From a phage, in sequence record PZ534511.1: a stretch of 64,000 nt of DNA. One strand, 5' to 3'. Below are positions 22,117-39,093 of the stretch, in pieces. The position numbers and the translations under genes are program-made. The notes under the pieces were generated by a model. It saw nothing but the letters and a program-made list of their open reading frames with translations. It made no database searches and was not told the DNA's origin. Position 1 is the stretch's first letter. Each line of letters opens with the position of its first letter.

Positions 22117-24189
22117 TTATGAGAAGTCTGGAGGGACAACATCTTCTACATACCCTTTCAGAGCAACCTGCCCCATATGAAGCACGGTAGAATCTCTGGC
22201 TGTAACAGTGATGCTGTCAGACATTACTTGCGGGTATGCCCACACATACTGTTTTACCTCAGGGTATCTATACTCTATGGTTGCCATGTTTCCGCAGATA
22301 CATCTCCATAAAAATTCTTGGTAATTCCTGGTTGGGTCGTAGCCATATACCGGAGCAAGCTCTTTACTAGGAACGAACCCTGCAAGGTATTGTATTTCAG
22401 ACGGTTGCCAACCTAACTTAACGATAGGTATGTTTACAGACTCTTTTGCCTTTTCAATACCTCCCTGCATCACCCAATCGTAGCACTCGGTGCAGAAGAA
22501 ATCAAGAGCACCTGCTTCTTTTTTATATTGGTCAGCAAGGTTCAGCTTTTGCGTAAGCTCTGTTTCCATAATGGTTGGGAAAAACAGCAGAGCTGTCATC
22601 TGAGCTGATGCAGCGTGTGCCTTTATTGCCTTTGAAATGGCCGCAATACGAGCGCCAAGCTTACCACGACAAAATGCTACATACTTGTCGTAAACACCGC
22701 CAGTTTTAGGATCGTCAATAGTCCCAATATCTAATGCATACTCACCTGTCTCATCATAAAACGCCTGCTTTGTAGGGTAATCATAAATACAAGGTCTACG
22801 AGTATCGGTATTGTACCACCACCACGGTTCACCAACCTGCATAATCACTGGCAGGTTGTTTCTCATAGCGGCTGATGCAAAATTCTTAAATACTGCAGTA
22901 AGGAAATTCATACCCTCTTCAATGGTTGGAGACAGGAGGTAGCTACAGGGTGTATACCCTGTTTTAGCGTAGTTATCGTTCCAGTCTCTTTGGGTCCATT
23001 CCAACGGGCAGGCATCGCTGAAAAGCTCAAAACTTACAGATTGCATAACGTCGAAGTTATGTCGTTTGGCATTGTACATAAAATCATCATGCCATTTATA
23101 AGCTGCAGCGTTTAGCGCCCCTGTTCTGTTTATAGACCATTGGGTTCCTGACCATGTGTAGTCATAATAATGACTCATACCAACATAATGGTTTATGGTT
23201 CCGGTATAGCCCAGACGCTTGATATTGTTCAACACCCTTAAAGGAGATACGTTCCACATATCGTCATATGCGGTGCAGATCCCAACGTCGTGCTCTTTAA
23301 CCTGAATATTGTTAAGTTGCATCATTTTCCAGCCTGTGTCTGGCTGGAGCAGATCTAGGCGCAACTCACACTCTACATTTTCCGTTCTCGGGTCTGTGCT
23401 ATTACTTACCCAGTCTTTAGGCATAAGCGGTATTAAAATCCTTCTCACCTGTCGAGGATCAACACCCATCATGTTGTTGTTCTGATCCATCCCGACGCAG
23501 TCCTCGAAATCAATATGAATCTCTGCAACATTCTTATCCTCTGAGATGCTGACAGCATATTGAGCTAAAGGAACATAGATGATTGTGCCATCAACAAGGT
23601 CTACAGTCATAATCATCTTTTCAGGGGTGGAGAAGTTGCTGGCATTGGTTATTGACATTCTGAACCAAAGCTTGGTGTTTCTCATCTCATAGTGATCATC
23701 AAACCCAATACCGAAATGGTCATACTTGTCAACTGTTTCCCAAATGCACCCAGCCATACCTCCATATGTTCTTGACACTAAACGGTTAATACAACAGTTG
23801 TTATCTGCAACAATACAGGTACTTTCAGTCTGCTGAGTAGTTGTAACCCAATACCTTGGGTGAAACATTCTCTCCTCAACAGTATCCCAAGATATCCTGT
23901 CAAGATTCTCATCTGAAACTATTGTACATTTCGCCCTTTGTGTTCCAATCATCACCCCTTGAGATTTTGATGAAAACTCCATAAAGAAGCTTCTTGGCAA
24001 CCTGTTGGGTAATTTGTCAACAATTTCCACTGGGATCTCAATACTGGTTGCCCCAATTGGGATAGTTACATCACCCTCAACATGATTATAATCCCTACCA
24101 GGAACGGCAGTATCCTGAACTGTGCGGTAATGAAACCGTGCAGCCATTGTAGAGTAATCACGGTAAGGTTTAAAAATAGCTGTTGCCAT
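22117..24189 (-). CDS. Baseplate-associated fibre/spike protein (690 aa)
   Basis: Position between gpI-like gene and fibre paralogs; no firm motif. Confidence 0.4.
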   Translation of the reverse strand: MATAIFKPYRDYSTMAARFHYRTVQDTAVPGRDYNHVEGDVTIPIGATSIEIPVEIVDKLPNRLPRSFFMEFSSKSQGVMIGTQRAKCTIVSDENLDRISWDTVEERMFHPRYWVTTTQQTESTCIVADNNCCINRLVSRTYGGMAGCIWETVDKYDHFGIGFDDHYEMRNTKLWFRMSITNASNFSTPEKMIMTVDLVDGTIIYVPLAQYAVSISEDKNVAEIHIDFEDCVGMDQNNNMMGVDPRQVRRILIPLMPKDWVSNSTDPRTENVECELRLDLLQPDTGWKMMQLNNIQVKEHDVGICTAYDDMWNVSPLRVLNNIKRLGYTGTINHYVGMSHYYDYTWSGTQWSINRTGALNAAAYKWHDDFMYNAKRHNFDVMQSVSFELFSDACPLEWTQRDWNDNYAKTGYTPCSYLLSPTIEEGMNFLTAVFKNFASAAMRNNLPVIMQVGEPWWWYNTDTRRPCIYDYPTKQAFYDETGEYALDIGTIDDPKTGGVYDKYVAFCRGKLGARIAAISKAIKAHAASAQMTALLFFPTIMETELTQKLNLADQYKKEAGALDFFCTECYDWVMQGGIEKAKESVNIPIVKLGWQPSEIQYLAGFVPSKELAPVYGYDPTRNYQEFLWRCICGNMATIEYRYPEVKQYVWAYPQVMSDSITVTARDSTVLHMGQVALKGYVEDVVPPDFS

Positions 24190-26482: not shown

Positions 26483-29400
26483 TTAGTCGTGAGACTCGTT
26501 CCAAGGTCCCTGGAAGCTAGAGTTTGAACGACTTACTATCACAGTAGGACAGGATATTGTAACACCTGTTATAGCTGAGGTGGACCAGCGTGTGTAAATT
26601 TCAACAATAATGTCTATGGTCTGTTCACCCAGCCCTGTTATCCCGACTGCACACATACCATCGTTGTCGTTACCATACTTCTTGCCAGCGAGCAACTGGT
26701 GCCCCGCTATCCACACATTCAACTGGGAGCCTCCTAGAGTTCCGTTAAGCTTAAAGAAGAATGTTACGTTCTTACCTTGTCCTTGAACGTTATCCACGTA
26801 TCTCCATCTCCAACGGCAAACCTGCTGCTGAGAGTTGTATACTGGAGGACAGTCACCGTAGGTCTTGTGTGCAACTATTGCACCTTCGAACTGGTTAGCA
26901 CGAATAACAGAAGCCTCTACACGCCCACGGAAGGTACCTCCGGTTGCATCTATGGTGCCCCTAAAGCTACCGTTATTGGCATAAACATCCCCACGGAAGG
27001 TACCACTGGTGGCGTTAACTGCCCCTGTGAAGTTACCAGAACTGGCGTTGATGTTGCCTTTCACCCATACATCCATAAATTGGGCGTGCCCGTTCTTGTT
27101 AATATACCAACCGTATTTATGGTACCCGTTGCCATCGTAGTTGTTTGACGAAATTTCTTGTGCGATCTTGGCAGAAGAGATCGTGCCATTCTCTATAAAA
27201 GCGTCTTTCAAGAACGCTTGGTTGTTCTTGATTGCGAAAGCAAGGGTTGCTGTTCCATTTCCGGGGTTGTATACCGCAAAGTTGTTTGCACTAACCATGA
27301 AGTAGGATTGAACTTGGCCCCCAGACCCTTCCATCCCCAACTGGATACCTGCAACATATTTATTCCCTGCGGAGTCTACCTGTATTTTTGTGCCCCATTG
27401 AGCATTTACTTTACCCTCTAAGTCGGTTACAGCCTTAGATGTTGTAGCTACTGCAGCCCTAAGCTCAGATACATCCCCAACATCATTGATGATCTCCTGC
27501 TTAGCGACAGCAAGTTCTTGACGAATAGCTGACGCTGTGCCGTTGATAAGGTCCACAGTGGCTTTGTTGGTATCGGAAATTGTAGCATCCAGCGCTGTTT
27601 TTGTGGAGGTCAGTTTTCCATCCAAAGCATCAATCGCTTGCTTGTTGGTAGAGATCTCCCCACGTGCAGAAGTTATTTGCTCTGACAGTGCAGATGTTTT
27701 CTGATTCAACAAGTCAGTGGTGGCCTTGTTGGTATTGGCAATCAAGGTGTTGAGGTCAGTTTTTGCGGTAGTTATCTTGCCGTCAAGGGTGGTATAGTTT
27801 TTAGATACCGTCGCGTTTGTCTGACTAATCTTTTGATCCAGAGTTTCAGATGTCCTGTTCAAAAGATCTACAGTGGCTTGGTTAGTGCTCAAGATGCTTG
27901 CGTCAAGTTCTGTTCTCTGAGTATTGATCTTACCATCCAGAGTTTTATCTCCGGCTAAATACCCGCTCTCAACTCCCCCTATCTGCTCTACCAGCTCACC
28001 TTTGGCGGCAACCAATTTCTCATCTAAAGCCTCTGTCTTTTTGTTCAGAAGATCAGTAGTTGCTTTATTGGTTGTCTCGATTAGAGATGCCAGTCTGCCA
28101 CTTTCAGTGTTCAGATCGTTGGTGAATTTGTTCTGTGCAGCAACAAGTTTCCTATCCAGCGCTGTAATGTTACCATTGACATCTTCAAACTTCTGAGTTG
28201 TTTCTGTAACTACCGCACCTATTCTGTCCCCAAGTTGCTGGAACGCTTCATCTACCCTACCATCCATGTACCTGTTAAGTTCTGTGACACGATTTTCAAC
28301 CTCTTCAATAGAGGAATCCAAAGTGCTCATCAACTCTTTATAAGTTTCTGTCTTTTTGAATTCAGCATCTATCTGAGGCATCAAATCCTCAATAGAGGTG
28401 TAGCAGCGTGCAGCGCATTCTACAAACTGAGAACTACCAAAAGCGTTTGTGGTTCGAATATACCAATAATAAACCTTATCGTTCTGCAGACCTTCAGATG
28501 TCCAAGTTGAACCAACACCCATACGGGTGGCGTTTGAAGTAACGGTTGCATCACTGGTGTCTGGCAACCTTGTCATACCGGATGTCCAAAAGTCATACTG
28601 GGTGCTAACACTTGCTAAATCCCTACTATGCGGAATCAAGGTGATAGCAAAGTATCCTTGCTTAACCTCTACAGAAACCGGAGCTTCAGGTGCCTGAATG
28701 TTAAACTCACAATACGCTTCTGGAGATACACCACCTTTATAAGATGTTGCAACCACGGTTGCTGTGTATGACCCTTTGGTCAAACCTTCTACTCTGACAA
28801 ACTGCTCAACTGTCTGTGCTGTCCAAACAATCTCTCCGTTCTTTCTTACCTGCACAATATTTTGAGCGTAAGTCCCAACGTTGTCCCAAGCCAAAACACC
28901 GTGAGTTACTTCCCCAGCTTGGAGAACGGAGTATCTGAAGTTTTGCGGTTGAGCTACACCAGATGGAGATATCGGAATATCTACATTGCCAGAATCCGGA
29001 AGTTGCCCTGTGGCATCATTCCACTCTTTAGCATCTTGACGAAGTTTTACCTTGACACCACCCTTTTTGGTAAACTCCCATTCAAGAACCCTCATTTCTT
29101 GGCCCACTATACCTATACTTGGAAGGTTCATTGTAACGTAACGACCAGGTTTAAATTTAAAACCTCGCATATTGCAGGTGACTTCAATAATCCTGCCAGC
29201 TCTCGCGCGTCTTAAGAAGATTGCAGAAACACGCTGAGCTTGATAAGGGCTGGTAACAAAGCGATAGTCTATATCGATTATCTTTCTTTCTCCATCCTTC
29301 TCTATCCACTCTGGGACAAACACTGATGGAAAATCTGTTTCAGAATACCCTTTGGTCGGACTAGTGAATCTGCCGGTTATTGTGTTGGATCTTTTGTCAA

Positions 29401-30322
29401 ATGAGGCTTCCGGGTAGATCTTGACCTCACCACAGACACAATCCTCACTCAGTGTCATTGTTGCCGGGCCATAGTATGCACCAACCAGCAAACCATACTT
29501 ACCAGCTACATAGCTGAGATCTGCGCCACAAGCTTTCAGCATTTCTGCCATAATACTTGCTGGGGCCTCATCCATATCGAACTCGCCATTAATTGTGTAA
29601 CGACGCTCGCTGGTTCCGTCTGCGTTTCTTACAGCCTCGTCGCATATGTTGGCAGCCTCCTTGAAGGACTCCCAGTTGATGGTTTCGTCAGGACATTTAA
29701 GGTACGTTCTTAAATAGTCCAGAATCACCAAGGCAGCGTTATTGGTATACACCTCTTTACTAGTGCGAGGATCATAGCATTTTTTACCAACCTTGACGAG
29801 TGTGACGTTTGGCAACCCAAAAGGAAACTTGTTAGGGTCAAACCTAAAGCTGACCCGTAGCCAACTGATCCCTCTACCTATCATGTCCGGTGACCACGAT
29901 GGGCAGTGTGTGCCCATGAAAGGATCAGAGGTTTTTCTATCGTTATGTAGCTCCCACGATACCAAATCCCCATACGAAGAAATAGGATTACCGTCGATAA
30001 GTATATCTTCTATACCTTCCAGAGGGTGATTGGCAAGAACAATAGCACAATGAAGGGTTCTGTCCCTGTCCTGCTCCAAAAACGCAAGCAATCCAGATGT
30101 ACGTGTCTTCCCATACACTACAGAGCAAGGTGCAGCAGAAGATCTGAGAAGCTTTTGTCTATCTTGCTGACTTCTGTAAGATTTGTTTCCCTCGAAAATC
30201 TTATCCAGAGTTCTGGTGGTAACAGTGTTCAGGCTGTCAGCCAGAGCTGCCTTGGATGCGTTCCAGTCATAACTTGAAGATCTTGCAGAAGCAACGATGT
30301 TATCAATCATTGCAATTGGCAT
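26483..30322 (-). CDS. Long tail fibre protein with FN3-like region and repeated coiled-coil shaft (1279 aa)
   Basis: Tandem ~50-aa repeats (NKATTDLLNQKT variants); C-terminal G-x-F-x-G repeats. Confidence 0.55.
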   Translation of the reverse strand: MPIAMIDNIVASARSSSYDWNASKAALADSLNTVTTRTLDKIFEGNKSYRSQQDRQKLLRSSAAPCSVVYGKTRTSGLLAFLEQDRDRTLHCAIVLANHPLEGIEDILIDGNPISSYGDLVSWELHNDRKTSDPFMGTHCPSWSPDMIGRGISWLRVSFRFDPNKFPFGLPNVTLVKVGKKCYDPRTSKEVYTNNAALVILDYLRTYLKCPDETINWESFKEAANICDEAVRNADGTSERRYTINGEFDMDEAPASIMAEMLKACGADLSYVAGKYGLLVGAYYGPATMTLSEDCVCGEVKIYPEASFDKRSNTITGRFTSPTKGYSETDFPSVFVPEWIEKDGERKIIDIDYRFVTSPYQAQRVSAIFLRRARAGRIIEVTCNMRGFKFKPGRYVTMNLPSIGIVGQEMRVLEWEFTKKGGVKVKLRQDAKEWNDATGQLPDSGNVDIPISPSGVAQPQNFRYSVLQAGEVTHGVLAWDNVGTYAQNIVQVRKNGEIVWTAQTVEQFVRVEGLTKGSYTATVVATSYKGGVSPEAYCEFNIQAPEAPVSVEVKQGYFAITLIPHSRDLASVSTQYDFWTSGMTRLPDTSDATVTSNATRMGVGSTWTSEGLQNDKVYYWYIRTTNAFGSSQFVECAARCYTSIEDLMPQIDAEFKKTETYKELMSTLDSSIEEVENRVTELNRYMDGRVDEAFQQLGDRIGAVVTETTQKFEDVNGNITALDRKLVAAQNKFTNDLNTESGRLASLIETTNKATTDLLNKKTEALDEKLVAAKGELVEQIGGVESGYLAGDKTLDGKINTQRTELDASILSTNQATVDLLNRTSETLDQKISQTNATVSKNYTTLDGKITTAKTDLNTLIANTNKATTDLLNQKTSALSEQITSARGEISTNKQAIDALDGKLTSTKTALDATISDTNKATVDLINGTASAIRQELAVAKQEIINDVGDVSELRAAVATTSKAVTDLEGKVNAQWGTKIQVDSAGNKYVAGIQLGMEGSGGQVQSYFMVSANNFAVYNPGNGTATLAFAIKNNQAFLKDAFIENGTISSAKIAQEISSNNYDGNGYHKYGWYINKNGHAQFMDVWVKGNINASSGNFTGAVNATSGTFRGDVYANNGSFRGTIDATGGTFRGRVEASVIRANQFEGAIVAHKTYGDCPPVYNSQQQVCRWRWRYVDNVQGQGKNVTFFFKLNGTLGGSQLNVWIAGHQLLAGKKYGNDNDGMCAVGITGLGEQTIDIIVEIYTRWSTSAITGVTISCPTVIVSRSNSSFQGPWNESHD

Positions 30323-30759
30323 TAATACCTCCAGACATCAACAACGATAGAATCTTTCATGTCGAACATAAAGACCCCTTTATCACCTTTAGCCCAAATC
30401 TGGTTGTTCCAGAACACACCAGCGGTGAGCCCGTTCAGACCTTCGAAAATGACAATATCTCCACGCTGAGCCTGTTTAGGAGTATCCAGCCGAGTCATAA
30501 AGAGATCAAAAATAGTAGGCAGGTGTGTGGTTTTGAAACGAAGCATGCACCATCTTTTGCTTTCCAACTCTGTTTTATACGTTCCTTCAAAGTTAGAAAG
30601 AAAATCTGTTCCGTATTGGGCATCAACACACTTAGCCGCAAAGGTGCAACAATCGTGGAATCCCCATTCAAAAGGTATGGTGGCCTCTTCGTCAAACACT
30701 TTCCACAATCTTTCTTGCCAATCCACTAAACGAGGATGTGTGCTCATTAAACCTCCCAA
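30322..30759 (-). CDS. Tail-associated protein, possible NlpC/P60-like fold
   Basis: EWGFHDCCTF Cys/His cluster; position before long fibre gene; weak. Confidence 0.3.
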   Translation of the reverse strand: MGGLMSTHPRLVDWQERLWKVFDEEATIPFEWGFHDCCTFAAKCVDAQYGTDFLSNFEGTYKTELESKRWCMLRFKTTHLPTIFDLFMTRLDTPKQAQRGDIVIFEGLNGLTAGVFWNNQIWAKGDKGVFMFDMKDSIVVDVWRY

Positions 30760-31313
30760 ATGATCGGGCGGCTCGCCACCTGATCCACATATTTAAAAAA
30801 TCTGTCGTTATCGTTTCTTGAGCTGTGGCTTTCCTCCGTGTACCGATAAGGAAAACCTCTTAACCAGCTGTTGAAGATGGAGGAGATGGATATGGACAAA
30901 GCACTATTCTCGCCTGTCTGAATAGCCATATCTGTTATAAGGCCGTCAAACAAGCCATTAGTTGTAACAGGCAGACCATTCTCCATAGCGGTAATGTACA
31001 ACGTGGCACGACAACCAGAATACTCCGTCTTCAGCAGATCACCCACATACTTAGGATCAAACCCGTTCAATGTCGCTACCACAGATCCGAAGTTGGTGGC
31101 ATCTTTCTCAGACACAGCAGTTAACGTTGCTGATCCACCTATCCCTATAAAATGTTGCCCCTCAATTACTACAACACCAGTGCCTGAGCACACCCTGACA
31201 GTTCCTGTCGGTAGCTCCAGCTTTGCAGCAATTAAGATCTCAACACCATCAAGCTCCAGCTTTTCAAGAAATAAATTATCTAATGGCGCTCTGATCATCT
31301 TAGAAATCCTCAA
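30747..31313 (-). CDS. Tail/baseplate structural protein
   Basis: Track ORF overlapping neighbours by 13-14 nt. Confidence 0.4.
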   Translation of the reverse strand: MRISKMIRAPLDNLFLEKLELDGVEILIAAKLELPTGTVRVCSGTGVVVIEGQHFIGIGGSATLTAVSEKDATNFGSVVATLNGFDPKYVGDLLKTEYSGCRATLYITAMENGLPVTTNGLFDGLITDMAIQTGENSALSISISSIFNSWLRGFPYRYTEESHSSRNDNDRFFKYVDQVASRPIIWEV

Positions 31314-31890
31314 AGAAGTTGATAACTATATTATCACCTTTTTGCATAGCATCGACTTTTTGCTTAATTTTATAAATATCTCTGATATGAAACCTACCCT
31401 TCGGAGATTGAGTTATTATCTTCATGGTGTCCCCTGCGGCAATAGGCTTTCTAAGTCTTGGAGATATGCCTATAACAGCAGACCCAACACCATCACTACG
31501 CACTGGAGCTGTTACCACTTTCAATTCATCATTGACAGATATTTTATCCCCAGCTCTAGCTATGTCTCTGTTTGGCTCCCATCCGACCGTCTTCAAAAAA
31601 TCGTCGTTACCAGTAGGCCCAAGGGCGATTGGCTCATTAGTTGTTACTGAGTGACCGTAAGTTTTAATAAGAAAGATGTTTCCATCTTTATACACCTGAT
31701 CAACAAAGCTCTTAAGCTCTAGCAACTGTGACTCGCTGATATTGGAGACCGTCAAAGTGCCTTTCCAGTTAGGTGTGGCATAGGTTACTTTTTGCGTTTT
31801 ACCTGTAAATGGACTTTTAAACGTAACAATATCTGCCAGCAGCTCCAATCTAATATCTGGAAGATATCTAGGCCTTTCCCATAAAAACAT
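31300..31890 (-). CDS. Tail/baseplate structural protein
   Basis: Track ORF; first gene after terminator. Confidence 0.4.
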   Translation of the reverse strand: MFLWERPRYLPDIRLELLADIVTFKSPFTGKTQKVTYATPNWKGTLTVSNISESQLLELKSFVDQVYKDGNIFLIKTYGHSVTTNEPIALGPTGNDDFLKTVGWEPNRDIARAGDKISVNDELKVVTAPVRSDGVGSAVIGISPRLRKPIAAGDTMKIITQSPKGRFHIRDIYKIKQKVDAMQKGDNIVINFFEDF

Positions 31891-31950: not shown

Positions 31951-31982
31951 TACAAACAAAAAGCCCCCGCCGAAGCGAGGGC
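31951..31982 (-). terminator. Rho-independent terminator
   Basis: Hairpin GCCCCCGCcgaaGCGAGGGC (one mismatch) then TTTTTGTTTG. Confidence 0.5.
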
Positions 31983-31989
31983 AAAACAG

Positions 31990-34900
31990 TTACTTCAGTT
32001 TCTCTTGCAACCCAGTAACAACCTCTGTCAATTTTTTAACCTGCTCCTCAAGGGCGGTTATTTTATCATCTTGTTCTCTGCAAACCTGAACAAGCAATCC
32101 TGTTACAGCCGCATAGTCAACATTATAGAATCTTTCCTCGGTCATCAGAGGAATACCATCTTGAGTAGGACCAGGAACCTCTTTCCTTTTCACGAAAGAA
32201 CCAACCGCTTCAGGCAATGCTTCCATAACCTCTTGAGCAATTACCCCCGCGTGAGGCATACCATTCTCTTTTAGAGTGTAGGTATAGCCTTTCATCTTAC
32301 GGATAGCTTCCAACGCGTTAGGAATAACCTCTATGTTATCCTTCAGGTCACGGTCAGAGCTCTGGCTGACAGCGGTGCACTCTACTACGCCGTTGACAGC
32401 AAAGTACCTTGACTTGGCCTCATCTGTCTTAGCACCACAATGCCATACCCAACTGGCAGATGTAGCGTTGTCGTTTATCTGAAACTCAAGCACGTTCTTC
32501 CTGTCTGCGCCATTACCCCAGTAGTACATTCTGCCTGTATTAGAAGGCATGTTGGAAGTGTTGGTAACATCGGTCCCACCACCTGTATGTATCATGAACT
32601 CTGGGTCAAGATTGGAACCTGCGGTTTTAAGAGTAATTCCCTTACCACCAAGCTGCTGCCAAGGTCCCCATGTGAAAACACTACCTATTGTTGTTCCATA
32701 ACGCAGGAATTTTTCCCCAAGATATGATATATACTCCTGTACGCAACTCTCTGGAACATTGGCGTAGTTCCTGTACACGATAAGCGTACCTGCCCGGGAG
32801 CATGGGTAGTTTCTATCAGGTGTGGCTTGAGCATTGGCCTCCTGATGATAAAAACCTTCCCTATCCCCTTTGTAGTCGTTAAGGTCATTAATCCCCAGAC
32901 CTTGCCCTCTGTGTTGTATGACCTTGTTCCACGCTCTATGGTTACCACCCTCGATAGATCTGGTGTATAACTGATCAAGGCGTCCAGCCATTTGGAAAGC
33001 ATAGTTTCCAGAGAACGCCACAGACAGTCCACCAACAACCATCGAGCCTTCTGGTCCGTTAACATTACCCGCCATTATTTTTGACGGGTTATTAGACCCA
33101 AACTGGTTGTTCCAGTCTCCACCAGTATGACATACAAAACCACCAGGGGCCGAGAAAGTACCGTCTTTGTTGAAATTGTAGAATCTGTGAGCTGTGCCCA
33201 CAACATCGCGAACAATAACTTGACCAGCTTCTGGGGTAGATCTGAACTCTGCCTGACCTTTGAGGCCAGCACCATTACCGCATTTAGAGGTAAACGTACC
33301 GTTAGTTAGATCCTCTGTTCCATCTGATGCACACTGGAATCCTGCATTAGAGAATAACGCCTTTCTAGGGCTGCCATAGCACAAATAGTCAATACCGTCA
33401 GCCCATAGTTCGACTTTAGGCATGTTCATTTTGCTCATCACCGCATAGCGTTCAGCAGTGCCTATATAGTGCCACTGTGTGCCGCCGCCAGTGTAGAACC
33501 CAGAGGTACCTTTGAAGTCAACAATAGGTCTGGTGTTGGTATTGTTATCTCCAAGAACAGCAAGATTCAAATCTGCTGACTGGAGAGGCGCAACAAACTT
33601 AACACCGTCCTGATTGTCTGTTACAGCTCCGACCTGGTAATCTTGCTCTCTGGTAAACACTTCTACAACATTTCTACTTGCGTATACGCTGACAGGGAAA
33701 GCACGAGCCTCTACATAGAAAGCAACATACTCTTGTTTACCCCTTGTTGGAGCAACCATCCCAAGAAGTGCTTTTTCATTCTGGTAGAAATTTACTACCC
33801 CGTAGAAAGAGTCTCCTCTGTCTGTCCAGCCCCCAGTTCTGTAATGGCACTGCAGAGTAGCGCAGTTCATAGGGTCACTGCCGGATGACGATCTGGTAAC
33901 TATGGTAATATCAGTACCAGTTGCTGGAGCATAGTACGGATCTGTTCTAACGATGATTGGGTAGTATTTCCCATCTTCCATCCCTGCAGTTCTTGGCAGT
34001 GTTAAGAAATCTTTGACACCCGCAGCTATAGGAACTTTGAACAGATTCTGAGCATCTGCCAGGGTTGTAGCCCCAGTGCCACCTGCGGCGTGAGATAAAG
34101 GTTCCCACTTGGCCTTCCGGTTGTTATAAACACCCCATTCCAGAGTGCCGTTACCGGACTCATCCATCCCACCATCCCAGACGACCATCTTGGCGGCTTT
34201 CTTGGACCCCCAGAAGCCTCTTTCTGCTCCTGAACTACGAATCCACTCTCCAAGTCCCCAGTTTGTCAGCTGACCAGTAAGATCCCCAACCTGCATGTAT
34301 TTAGGGCAGTCTAACACGCCGTCTTCGCGTAAACCTAAATATCTATGAGTTTCAGATCCTTTTGCACCTTTGTGCAGGTGGATTGTCAACCAAGCCTTAT
34401 TGTCGTTTCTTACCTCAGAATAGATCCTATATCCATGCTCAAGGACACCGTCAGTATTATATTTATCTCCATGGAGAATACCTGAGGCCGATTTAACATC
34501 TCCCGAGTATTGAGCTAAGTAAAGGTGCCCGAAGGCTGGCGAGTTGTTTTTACCAAGGCCAATATGAGATCTGAAGGTATCATCGTTACGAGGTCTGACC
34601 ATCGGCTGCCATGCAGTCCACTGATTTGTGTTGGCCTGATAGGTTCTCAAATACCAAACATCTACGTTAGAGAATGGATAGTATTCCTGACGACAACCTG
34701 TACCGCCGTTAGCATTGTTCTGCCAAACAATCAAGTGACCAGCACCAGAACCTGCAGGGTAACCATTTGCCTCAGTTGCATTAGCAGTCATCGGCTGGTA
34801 GTATATACCATCCTGATTACCAGTCAAATTATTGATATTGAAATTTGCATCAAGCGCAGCACGCTGCTTATAGAAAGCACCGATATTGATACGGACTCCA

Positions 34901-35790
34901 GCGGCATCTCTAGCCCCTGTGCCGCCTTGCTCTATAGCAAGAGGTTGCCACGAAGCTGTTTGTTGGTTCCACATACCCCAACGGCCTGTTGCATCAAGCT
35001 GCAAGTACCCTGCCGTATTTAAATCATCTCCAGCACGGATAACTGTTCTTGTTGGGTTATTTGTCTCTAGGCGTTTAAATTCATCACGAAGTGCTATTCT
35101 TTTTGTTGTTGCTACACCGTTGGTTACTGCAATGGTGTACATAGCTCCGGTGGTAGCGCCACGGAAAATACCATCAACAGTTGTAGTATCACGACGAGAT
35201 ACCACACCGTTCAGAAATTTTTCACCAGCTGCTACAGAAGGGTAGTTGGTAGTTCTTCCCTCTTCAATAACTGCAGGGCCAACAAAGTTATCAAGGTGAA
35301 TAACATCGCCTACAGTGTGCACTGTACCAAAATCTACACGCTGTGCAAGTGCTTTAGCATCGTTAGCTGTCTGAACAGTAACATCCATTACATCCTGGAC
35401 AGACTGCCCTTCGGCTGTCATGATCATAGATGCGCCAATGGTAGATTCCAGCTCCTCCCTTAGGGACGGGTCAGTATATACCATCCATGCAGCGTCAGTA
35501 ATCCCACCATCAGCGTACGGTGAAGACAGTGCAGGAACAGTGTGTGGAAATTCGCCTTTCCAACGCAGGTAGAGGTCTTCCTCTTCGAAGTAGGCAAAAT
35601 CCATTGGGCCGTTTAACTTACCACCTTCCTTAAAGGAGATTACATGAGAAACAGTCCCATCCACATGGACAACATCGCCAATTTTTACACGACGAGTCAG
35701 GTCTGGTTGTTGAACAACCAGGTAATCATCCTCTGTCACTGCGGTAGTGGCAGGAAGAGATTCAATTCTGACAACTTTAATATCAGCCAT
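31990..35790 (-). CDS. Tail fibre/tailspike with C-terminal intramolecular chaperone (peptidase S74-like) domain
   Basis: C-terminal SSDRDLKDNIEV motif and trailing coiled coil; N-terminal anchor domain shared with 38425..39093. Confidence 0.6.
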   Translation of the reverse strand: MADIKVVRIESLPATTAVTEDDYLVVQQPDLTRRVKIGDVVHVDGTVSHVISFKEGGKLNGPMDFAYFEEEDLYLRWKGEFPHTVPALSSPYADGGITDAAWMVYTDPSLREELESTIGASMIMTAEGQSVQDVMDVTVQTANDAKALAQRVDFGTVHTVGDVIHLDNFVGPAVIEEGRTTNYPSVAAGEKFLNGVVSRRDTTTVDGIFRGATTGAMYTIAVTNGVATTKRIALRDEFKRLETNNPTRTVIRAGDDLNTAGYLQLDATGRWGMWNQQTASWQPLAIEQGGTGARDAAGVRINIGAFYKQRAALDANFNINNLTGNQDGIYYQPMTANATEANGYPAGSGAGHLIVWQNNANGGTGCRQEYYPFSNVDVWYLRTYQANTNQWTAWQPMVRPRNDDTFRSHIGLGKNNSPAFGHLYLAQYSGDVKSASGILHGDKYNTDGVLEHGYRIYSEVRNDNKAWLTIHLHKGAKGSETHRYLGLREDGVLDCPKYMQVGDLTGQLTNWGLGEWIRSSGAERGFWGSKKAAKMVVWDGGMDESGNGTLEWGVYNNRKAKWEPLSHAAGGTGATTLADAQNLFKVPIAAGVKDFLTLPRTAGMEDGKYYPIIVRTDPYYAPATGTDITIVTRSSSGSDPMNCATLQCHYRTGGWTDRGDSFYGVVNFYQNEKALLGMVAPTRGKQEYVAFYVEARAFPVSVYASRNVVEVFTREQDYQVGAVTDNQDGVKFVAPLQSADLNLAVLGDNNTNTRPIVDFKGTSGFYTGGGTQWHYIGTAERYAVMSKMNMPKVELWADGIDYLCYGSPRKALFSNAGFQCASDGTEDLTNGTFTSKCGNGAGLKGQAEFRSTPEAGQVIVRDVVGTAHRFYNFNKDGTFSAPGGFVCHTGGDWNNQFGSNNPSKIMAGNVNGPEGSMVVGGLSVAFSGNYAFQMAGRLDQLYTRSIEGGNHRAWNKVIQHRGQGLGINDLNDYKGDREGFYHQEANAQATPDRNYPCSRAGTLIVYRNYANVPESCVQEYISYLGEKFLRYGTTIGSVFTWGPWQQLGGKGITLKTAGSNLDPEFMIHTGGGTDVTNTSNMPSNTGRMYYWGNGADRKNVLEFQINDNATSASWVWHCGAKTDEAKSRYFAVNGVVECTAVSQSSDRDLKDNIEVIPNALEAIRKMKGYTYTLKENGMPHAGVIAQEVMEALPEAVGSFVKRKEVPGPTQDGIPLMTEERFYNVDYAAVTGLLVQVCREQDDKITALEEQVKKLTEVVTGLQEKLK

Positions 35791-38424: not shown

Positions 38425-39093
38425 TTAGATAGCTCCTGCGATAATCAGTGCCCCGTACCAAGTTAACCCGTTGTCGTAGGTTTCCAACTTGAAAATATCT
38501 GTTGCACCAGCTGTAAATGTTAGGATAGGATCTCTTCCGTAGGACCATTTAACATTACCAGGCCAATAGACTTTGTTGCCGCCAGAGGTCTGAGTAATGC
38601 ATACGGTTATAGTCCTCGCCACCCCTTCAAGACCTTCTGTTTGATTTTCAAAAGAGATTGTGGTATTTGAAGTTAGTCGAACCTTAAAGGTATCCGCAAC
38701 TTCAAGATCCATATCAAGCTGACCACCGATAGATCCGTAATCAACTATTCTGCCAGAAGAAGTTGCAGCAAGCTCACCAAAAACAGACCAGGCATTTGCA
38801 GACACACCCCCAGCACCCTCTACAGTGGAGTCTGGGAGGATTATTTTAGGATAATCCCCGTTCCACGTGTAGTAGCGCTTAGTTTCTGGATCATAAGCAA
38901 AGTCCTTCTTGCTCTTAAGATAACCACCCTCTGTGAAATAGACTATCTTAGTGATGCTAAGATCGTTGACAACATCGTCAATCTTAGCCTTTCTTGTCCC
39001 ATCAGTCTGGTTGACAACCAAGAAGTCATCACTCAGGACTGTTTCTGCATCTTCAAGATCTGGAATTGGTATTGTAGGATAAGCTACAGCCAT
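38425..39093 (-). CDS. Short fibre/adaptor protein with tailspike-type N-terminal anchor domain
   Basis: N-terminus (DFLVVNQTDGTRKAKIDDVV..FTEGGYLKSKKDFAY) parallels N-terminus of 1266-aa fibre. Confidence 0.45.
   Translation of the reverse strand: MAVAYPTIPIPDLEDAETVLSDDFLVVNQTDGTRKAKIDDVVNDLSITKIVYFTEGGYLKSKKDFAYDPETKRYYTWNGDYPKIILPDSTVEGAGGVSANAWSVFGELAATSSGRIVDYGSIGGQLDMDLEVADTFKVRLTSNTTISFENQTEGLEGVARTITVCITQTSGGNKVYWPGNVKWSYGRDPILTFTAGATDIFKLETYDNGLTWYGALIIAGAI

Follow-up and report, generated by a model that had tools for sequence, protein, structure and literature searches.

The window analysed here, a stretch of 64,000 nucleotides (PZ534511.1), carries on its minus strand a tail fibre gene of 1266 aa plus stop codon (31990..35790), which was taken from the list of open reading frames and matched phrog_6578 'tail fiber protein' with 1758 bits. 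The parts of the fibre gene and the terminator described below lie on the minus strand as well. The nucleotide sequence of the gene was 95.6% identical to that of Escherichia phage FV3 and 90-95% identical to those of about ninety other rV5-like phages. At the protein level the identity was 88% to gp41 of rV5 (ABI79112, 1272 aa; full length) and 85% to bas54_0027 of MaxBurger. The gene order around the fibre, with a lambda-J-like 1279-aa protein, a distal-tail-protein-like gene and an 865-aa tail protein, was the same as in rV5 and MaxBurger, and because of this order we identified the window as the tail and fibre region of a Vequintavirus (rV5-like). Gp41 of rV5 occupies the syntenic position in its tail/fibre cluster, with orthologues in FV3, MaxBurger and other Vequintavirus. 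Full-length similarity and a conserved gene neighbourhood were thus both found, as for the gp41-type lateral tail fibres of Vequintavirus (phrog_6578), and we concluded that, by sequence, the gene is an orthologue of rV5 gp41 and MaxBurger bas54_0027. Directly after the stop codon of the fibre gene a strong intrinsic terminator was detected (31953..31982), with an 8-bp stem containing 7 G-C pairs, a TTCG loop and then TTTTTGTTTG. The next gene after the fibre gene is the distal-tail-protein-like one (phrog_1302).

The N-terminal part of the fibre contains an anchor domain, Tail_spike_N (PF18668, E 7.5e-10), at aa 46-103 (35482..35655), and in a sequence search of the PDB the N-terminus matched the N-termini of the tail spikes and fibres 9occ, 9lna, 9d84 and 4qnl. 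The N-terminus of a 222-aa protein encoded elsewhere in the window (38425..39093) was paralogous to this anchor domain. Further along the fibre a knob-like domain was present in two copies, the first at aa 318-397 (34600..34839) and the second, of the pyocin-knob type and recognised by its similarity to the first, at aa 969-1047 (32650..32886); the copies were 34% identical (E 1e-12). The fibre of the R2 pyocin (6ct8) was found in the PDB search as a sequence match for aa 978-1048. Compared with rV5 segment by segment, from the N- to the C-terminus, the fibre was 98, 97, 98, 86, 60, 45.5 and 89% identical, the 60% belonging to aa 958-1050 and the 45.5% to aa 1051-1144. The last of these stretches (32359..32640) reached no more than 45.5% identity with either rV5 or MaxBurger, and its flanks were well kept, with 86-98% identity on one side and 89-90% on the other. 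From the segment identities it follows that a hypervariable distal tip sits between a conserved shaft and the conserved C-terminal domain described below. The phage differs from rV5 in carrying another allele of the receptor tip on the same scaffold and with the same C-terminal domain.

The extreme C-terminus of the fibre, aa 1145-1266 of 1266 (31993..32358), comprises 122 aa, for which a mass of 13.6 kDa was calculated. When the whole protein was searched against Pfam, aa 1145-1196 matched PF13884, Peptidase_S74 ('Chaperone of endosialidase'), with 60.8 bits and an E value of 1.5e-16, covering HMM positions 1-57 of 58. The match scored almost three-fold above the gathering score of 22 bits, and the E value was 9.4e-18 when the last 143 aa were searched alone. 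The domain begins within the sequence SSDRDLKDNIEV at aa 1144-1155, which contains the motif SDRDLK also present in rV5 gp41 and in MaxBurger bas54_0027, and the C-terminal sequence continues as ...YFAVNGVVECTAVSQSSDRDLKDNIEVIPNALEAIRKMKGYTYTLKENGMPHAGVIAQEVMEALPEAVGSF...ITALEEQVKKLTEVVTGLQEKLK. In PHROGs the last 143 aa fell into many families of 'tail fiber' and 'long tail fiber distal subunit' proteins. The only other Pfam domain on the 1266 aa was Tail_spike_N, and no sialidase or other glycan-degrading domain was detected by Pfam. Peptidase_S74 was not found by Pfam in nine other proteins of the tail/fibre cluster.

A preliminary description of this DNA had proposed an S74-like chaperone domain in the last ~125 residues of the fibre, with a C-terminal part of ~14 kDa, and had named the Pfam HMM as a check. 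The profile match and the fold bear this out, and the calculated length and mass are close to those anticipated. Its outer coordinate, 32380, falls at aa 1137 and thus misses the start of the domain by eight residues on the N-terminal side, which was adequate; the minus strand had not been stated.

In principle, motifs as short as this one, with Ser and Lys, are frequent, and SDRDLK could have arisen by coincidence at the end of an ordinary fibre. We consider the probability of this to be next to nil. Even the relaxed motif SD..[LIVM]K.[DNE][IV] occurred a single time in the six-frame translation of the 64-kb window, the HMM match had an E value far beyond chance, and the fold searches returned chaperone domains only. 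Chance resemblance is accordingly refuted by the Pfam search, the homologue profile and the fold searches.

The catalytic residues were located by conservation and by alignment to characterised members of the family. An alignment of 24 homologues, gathered from a search of 5.8 billion proteins, showed Lys1150 (32341..32343) to be invariant, and Ser1145 and Asp1146 were conserved in at least 90% of the sequences. By BLASTP, Ser1145 and Lys1150 paired with Ser1264 and Lys1269 of the T5 fibre protein pb1 (sequence from NC_005859), and the alignment to Lys1269 together with the conservation makes Lys1150 the predicted general base of a Ser-Lys dyad. In T5 the serine is activated by Lys1269, autoproteolysis is blocked by the exchange S1264A, and the bond that is cut is Thr1263-Ser1264 (PMC4690869). 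A profile built from the homologues matched three PDB entries. Two are S16 gp37 (6F45, E 6e-18) and the ICA domain of MyRF (7DC3, E 1.6e-9); the third, 3GUD, is the released chaperone of the GA-1 neck appendage. The 3GUD chain starts with SDERHK, which aligned with SDRDLK so that its residue 1 is the equivalent of Ser1145. The catalytic positions were also aligned with S16 gp37. In K1F endosialidase the corresponding nucleophile is Ser911. The Ser-Lys dyad context suggested in the preliminary description was therefore found at the catalytic positions of the family, as seen from the T5 pb1, S16 gp37 and GA-1 alignments.

From the alignments to T5 pb1 and GA-1 3GUD we predicted the scissile bond to be Ser1144-Ser1145 (32356..32361; codons 32359-32361 and 32356-32358). 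A cut at this position would give a fragment of 122 aa and 13.6 kDa and a mature fibre of 125 kDa comprising aa 1-1144. In T5, the residues Arg1250, Asp1239 and Thr1263 upstream of the nucleophile, contributed by a neighbouring chain, sense the folding state or form the oxyanion hole (PMC4690869). Arg1250 and Asp1239 could not be mapped onto the fibre, as the alignment upstream of the serine was unreliable. Arg1128, a candidate sensor, recurs in rV5 and in SE11, a T5-like phage, but was not conserved in other homologues.

The structure of the last 143 aa was predicted with AlphaFold2 as a monomer from the 24-sequence alignment, with a mean pLDDT of 81.6. The model consists of short helices and strands, a beta-hairpin and a single long C-terminal helix. 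The hairpin is predicted at aa 1196-1224 (32119..32205; model strands E73-81 and E93-101), and the length of this segment varied among the homologues; it is possibly the counterpart of the 'tentacle' hairpin described for the T5 chaperone (PMC4690869). The C-terminal helix spans aa 1226-1265 (31996..32115; model helix H103-142) with block pLDDT values of 89-95. In the last 23 aa all seven a/d heptad positions (7/7) were hydrophobic, an outcome matched by 64 of 20,000 shuffled sequences. A cruder heptad test gave no significant result when applied to all 44 aa of the tail. The continuous model helix and the heptad pattern agree with the coiled-coil tail noted in the preliminary description, and we presume that the helix forms a trimeric coiled coil, the trimeric state being taken from T5 and K1F.

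When the model was compared with the PDB by Foldseek, the seven best matches were to 4UW8 (T5 pb1), 3GW6 (K1F) and 3GUD (GA-1), each with a probability of 1.00, and the matches thereafter were unrelated proteins with probabilities below 0.5. The scores were moderate, as is to be expected of a monomer model set against intertwined trimers. Neither 4UW8 nor 3GW6 was retrieved by the phmmer and profile searches of the PDB, and both were found by the fold search only. The top matches of the fold searches were exclusively intramolecular chaperones, including the MyRF ICA domain, which belongs to a membrane-bound eukaryotic transcription factor. That aa 1145-1266 belong to Peptidase_S74, the family of C-terminal intramolecular chaperone domains, was hence confirmed by the HMM score, the position in the protein, the serine, the lysine and the fold.

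The K1F endosialidase chaperone is the founding member of Peptidase S74. The domain of the fibre belongs to the same Pfam family and fold class as the K1F domain (3GW6), with a likeness given by HMM and structure only, as no pairwise sequence match was obtained. K1F differs in having a sialidase/glycosidase domain, which was not detected in the fibre. The chaperone of T5 pb1 (aa 1264-1396, 4UW8) was ~29% identical over 75 aa and is 133 aa long, compared with 122 aa here. When the full-length proteins were compared by BLASTP only the chaperone boundary aligned (E 0.14) and no homology of the shaft was found; the T5 'bullet' domain, the substrate that is folded, was without a detectable sequence counterpart in the fibre. 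As judged from these comparisons, the fibre as a whole is neither a homologue of T5 pb1 nor an endosialidase, and the C-terminal module alone is common to them. The likeness to endosialidases and L-shaped fibres that had been suggested earlier thus holds for the C-terminal domain and does not extend to the rest of the protein, which is unrelated to T5 pb1 and lacks a sialidase domain. The chaperone-coding region of T5 is also overlapped by an annotated antisense ORF, T5.134. Over the chaperone region of the fibre an antisense ORF was present as well (32005..32274, plus strand, 89 aa); it had no similarity to T5.134 and was rejected as a chance ORF.

Some of these relationships have been described before. 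In the study of the rV5 genome, gp41 was found by HHpred to match 3GW6 and to have a coiled-coil C-terminus (Kropinski et al. 2013, PMC3606486). Its supplementary table lists gp41 as 'L-shaped tail fiber protein; PF13884.1 Peptidase_S74', and gp41 was identified as a virion protein by mass spectrometry (PMC3606486). The name 'L-shaped tail fiber protein' is owed solely to the chaperone. More recently, S74 domains were reported on fibres of Vequintavirinae in the RBPseg study of 2025 (PMC12143355). The S74 domain on the gp41 lineage was therefore already known, from rV5 since 2013 and from Vequintavirinae fibres since 2025. A literature search joining Vequintavirus with S74 returned no match.

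The best explanation of the data, and one we hold with high confidence, is that aa 1145-1266 are an S74 chaperone domain, which would template the trimeric tip of the fibre and then cleave itself off at Ser1144-Ser1145. The explanation starts from the domain, its catalytic residues, the predicted fold and the orthology to rV5 gp41 found in this study. On the model of the homologous domains of K1F endosialidase and T5 pb1, the fibre would trimerise, be folded by the chaperone and be cleaved (PMC4690869). The C-terminal helices of three nascent chains would form a trimeric coiled coil and thereby bring the chains into register. The distal tip (aa ~1051-1144), the presumed substrate of the chaperone, would then fold into its intertwined form, with the hairpin and the alpha/beta part serving as the template. 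Once the trimer was correctly folded, Lys1150 would be positioned so as to activate Ser1145, and Ser1145 would cut the Ser1144-Ser1145 bond in every chain, with one 13.6-kDa fragment leaving per chain. What would be left is the mature 125-kDa fibre with the hypervariable receptor-binding tip presumably at its C-terminal end.

From family membership we strongly infer that the fibre is autoproteolysed, and the cryo-EM map of a relative gives indirect support. The TC12 fibre of MaxBurger was described as having pyocin-knob domains and, at its C-terminus, an S74 domain, and the density of the peptidase was absent 'as expected' from the map, which had a resolution of 7-9 Å (PMC12143355). This fibre (RBP_11) is probably the orthologue of gp41 and bas54_0027, because only one S74-bearing fibre was found in the homologous cluster here. 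The missing density also speaks against a rival view, which we judge to be very improbable, that the S74-like domain stays uncleaved and forms part of the virion, where it would serve the fibre as a structural cap or a trimerisation foot. This view would agree with our failure to identify the upstream sensor residues in the fibre. In the Seuratvirus KurtStettler an S74-like stretch lies mid-protein in 510 aa, and therefore not every occurrence of S74 need be a releasable C-terminus. However, the Ser-Lys dyad of the fibre is intact and conserved, which makes a retained domain unlikely, and the characterised members with an intact dyad, T5, K1F, GA-1/phi29, S16 and MyRF, all cleave (PMC4690869, PMC12143355). 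In the virion proteome of rV5, 8 of 8 gp41 peptides were N-terminal of rV5 Ser1151. Only 6 of the 52 detectable tryptic peptides of gp41 lie in the chaperone, so that an all-N-terminal outcome would arise by chance in ~38% of cases, and because of this probability (~0.38) the virion peptides were uninformative on cleavage.

Cleavage with subsequent release of the chaperone could also have the main purpose of laying bare a site at which a separate adhesin docks, in the manner of S16 gp37 and gp38, in which case the tip would not be receptor-binding. No PDB entry matched the sequence better than S16 gp37 (6F45), and a gp38-like adhesin was suggested for the MaxBurger fibre by the authors of the RBPseg study (PMC12143355). 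S16 gp37 later binds the separate adhesin gp38, whereas such a gene was not seen near the fibre gene here: the fibre gene is followed by the terminator and then by the distal-tail-protein-like gene, and the GP38 family was not found by Pfam in the nine neighbouring proteins of the fibre cluster. The MaxBurger map likewise showed no adhesin density (PMC12143355), and no part of the fibre varies more than the tip at aa 1051-1144, as expected if the tip itself contacts the receptor. We therefore regard adhesin docking as improbable, and prefer the templating of a receptor-binding tip followed by self-cleavage.

Horizontal exchange of tip-plus-chaperone cassettes is well known. Outside the Vequintavirus, the chaperone was 66.7% identical in the L-shaped fibre of the T5-like Salmonella phage SE11 (gp130, 1360 aa), where ~60 aa before the serine were alignable, the distal tip itself only weakly. 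In 'tail fiber domain-containing proteins' of E. coli prophages the C-terminal module was 56-70% identical. The SE11, prophage and siphovirus fibres differ from the fibre studied here in scaffold, virion morphotype and N-terminal attachment. A module of tip plus chaperone is common to myoviruses and siphoviruses, which fits horizontal cassette exchange. We also considered a combined reading, in which the chaperone and the preceding ~60-90 aa would form a portable 'tip cassette' and the released trimer would have a second role, or a docking site for an adhesin would be exposed; as a whole we give it a small chance. If it were true, the conserved 3' end of the gene would be a recombination anchor for swaps of the receptor tip, and rV5-like myoviruses would trade tips with E. 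coli prophages and with siphoviruses, T5-like ones among them. The second role of the released 13.6-kDa coiled-coil trimer would then be in the infected cell.

The value of these results for discovery is small, and their practical value lies in annotation and engineering. For annotation, aa 1-1144 (125 kDa, predicted) are best treated as the mature fibre, with the receptor-specific part presumably in the 94-190 residues immediately upstream of the predicted cleavage site. Recombinant receptor-binding constructs should retain aa 1145-1266, which are predicted to be required for folding, and the exchange S1145A would yield the uncleaved form for structural work. The predicted mature fibre ends with ...VVECTAVSQS, and its semi-tryptic C-terminal peptide would be YFAVNGVVECTAVSQS (aa 1129-1144). 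The peptides DNIEVIPNALEAIR and FYNVDYAAVTGLLVQVCR belong to the chaperone part.

The distal region of the 1266-aa tail fibre protein (aa 955-1144; 32359-32928, minus strand) was found to be only 45-60% identical to its orthologues in the Vequintavirus relatives rV5 and MaxBurger, whereas the remaining fibre was 86-98% and the C-terminal Peptidase_S74 chaperone 89-90% identical to them. As judged from these sequence identities, the region is a putative receptor-tip allele swap, with the conserved chaperone as its boundary.

The chaperone was compared with homologous copies. The L-shaped fibre gp130 of the T5-like siphovirus Salmonella phage SE11 (locus L007, 859-4941) and fibre fragments from E. 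coli prophages (proteins P0003-P0032) were 56-70% identical to it. The L-shaped tail fibre of T5 itself, pb1, reached about 29% identity to this myovirus chaperone, far below the SE11 and prophage copies. That the chaperone is nearer to those copies than to pb1 indicates that the module has been exchanged across morphotypes. A further relative was detected in the Seuratvirus KurtStettler, where bas22_0024 (locus L006, 2934-4466; 510 aa), annotated as a 'putative lateral tail fiber chaperone', contains an S74-like stretch with 54.6% identity to the S74 domain of the fibre. This stretch is internal (about aa 190-294) and is followed by a further ~215 aa, an unusual placement, as the domain normally forms the end of the protein.

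Two copies of a knob-like domain of ~80 aa each were identified in the fibre, copy 1 at aa 318-397 (34600-34839, minus strand) and copy 2 at aa 969-1047 (32650-32886, minus strand). They aligned to each other with 34% identity (E 1e-12), and copy 2 matched the R2 pyocin fibre 6ct8. The domain is the counterpart of a mobile pseudo-domain, the 'pyocin knob', which the RBPseg cryo-EM study (PMC12143355) described in TC12 fibres.

At its N-terminus (aa 7-105; 35476-35772, minus strand) the fibre carries a Tail_spike_N-type anchor (PF18668). The N-terminus of a 222-aa rV5-gp43-like protein, encoded two genes upstream (38425..39093, minus strand), was 38% identical to it (E 3e-20), which suggests that the two proteins may share a type of attachment site on the baseplate. 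A 690-aa lateral-fibre protein (22117..24189, minus strand; PF23845, E 4e-80, and PF23844) matched the TIM-barrel and N-terminal domains of the 'non-contractile tail sheath protein' and also Calx-beta; the annotation of its MaxBurger counterpart reads glycosidase/deacetylase fibre.

Although the phage is contractile-tailed, the fibre gene is followed immediately downstream (26483..31890, minus strand) by a siphovirus-like tail-tip set. Its members are a gene resembling those for distal tail proteins (phrog_1302), a tail protein gene (phrog_2048), one for a 145-aa protein whose MaxBurger annotation is cell wall hydrolase, and one for a lambda-J-like protein of 1279 aa in which Phage_Tail_Tip and Ig_J domains were identified. 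The set had previously been noted for rV5.

On the plus strand an 89-aa antisense ORF (32005..32274) overlaps the chaperone-coding region, and an antisense CDS, T5.134, is annotated at the corresponding position in T5. Since comparison of the two products revealed no similarity, the 89-aa ORF is probably a chance ORF.

In the phage collection, 16-18 records named 'Campylobacter phage' (host C. jejuni) matched the E. coli rV5-like fibre gene. In the one such record inspected, MG065677 ('Campylobacter phage A13b'), the C-terminal 143 aa were 87.2% identical. These records resemble coliphages of the rV5-like type, and mislabelling or contamination is the probable explanation.
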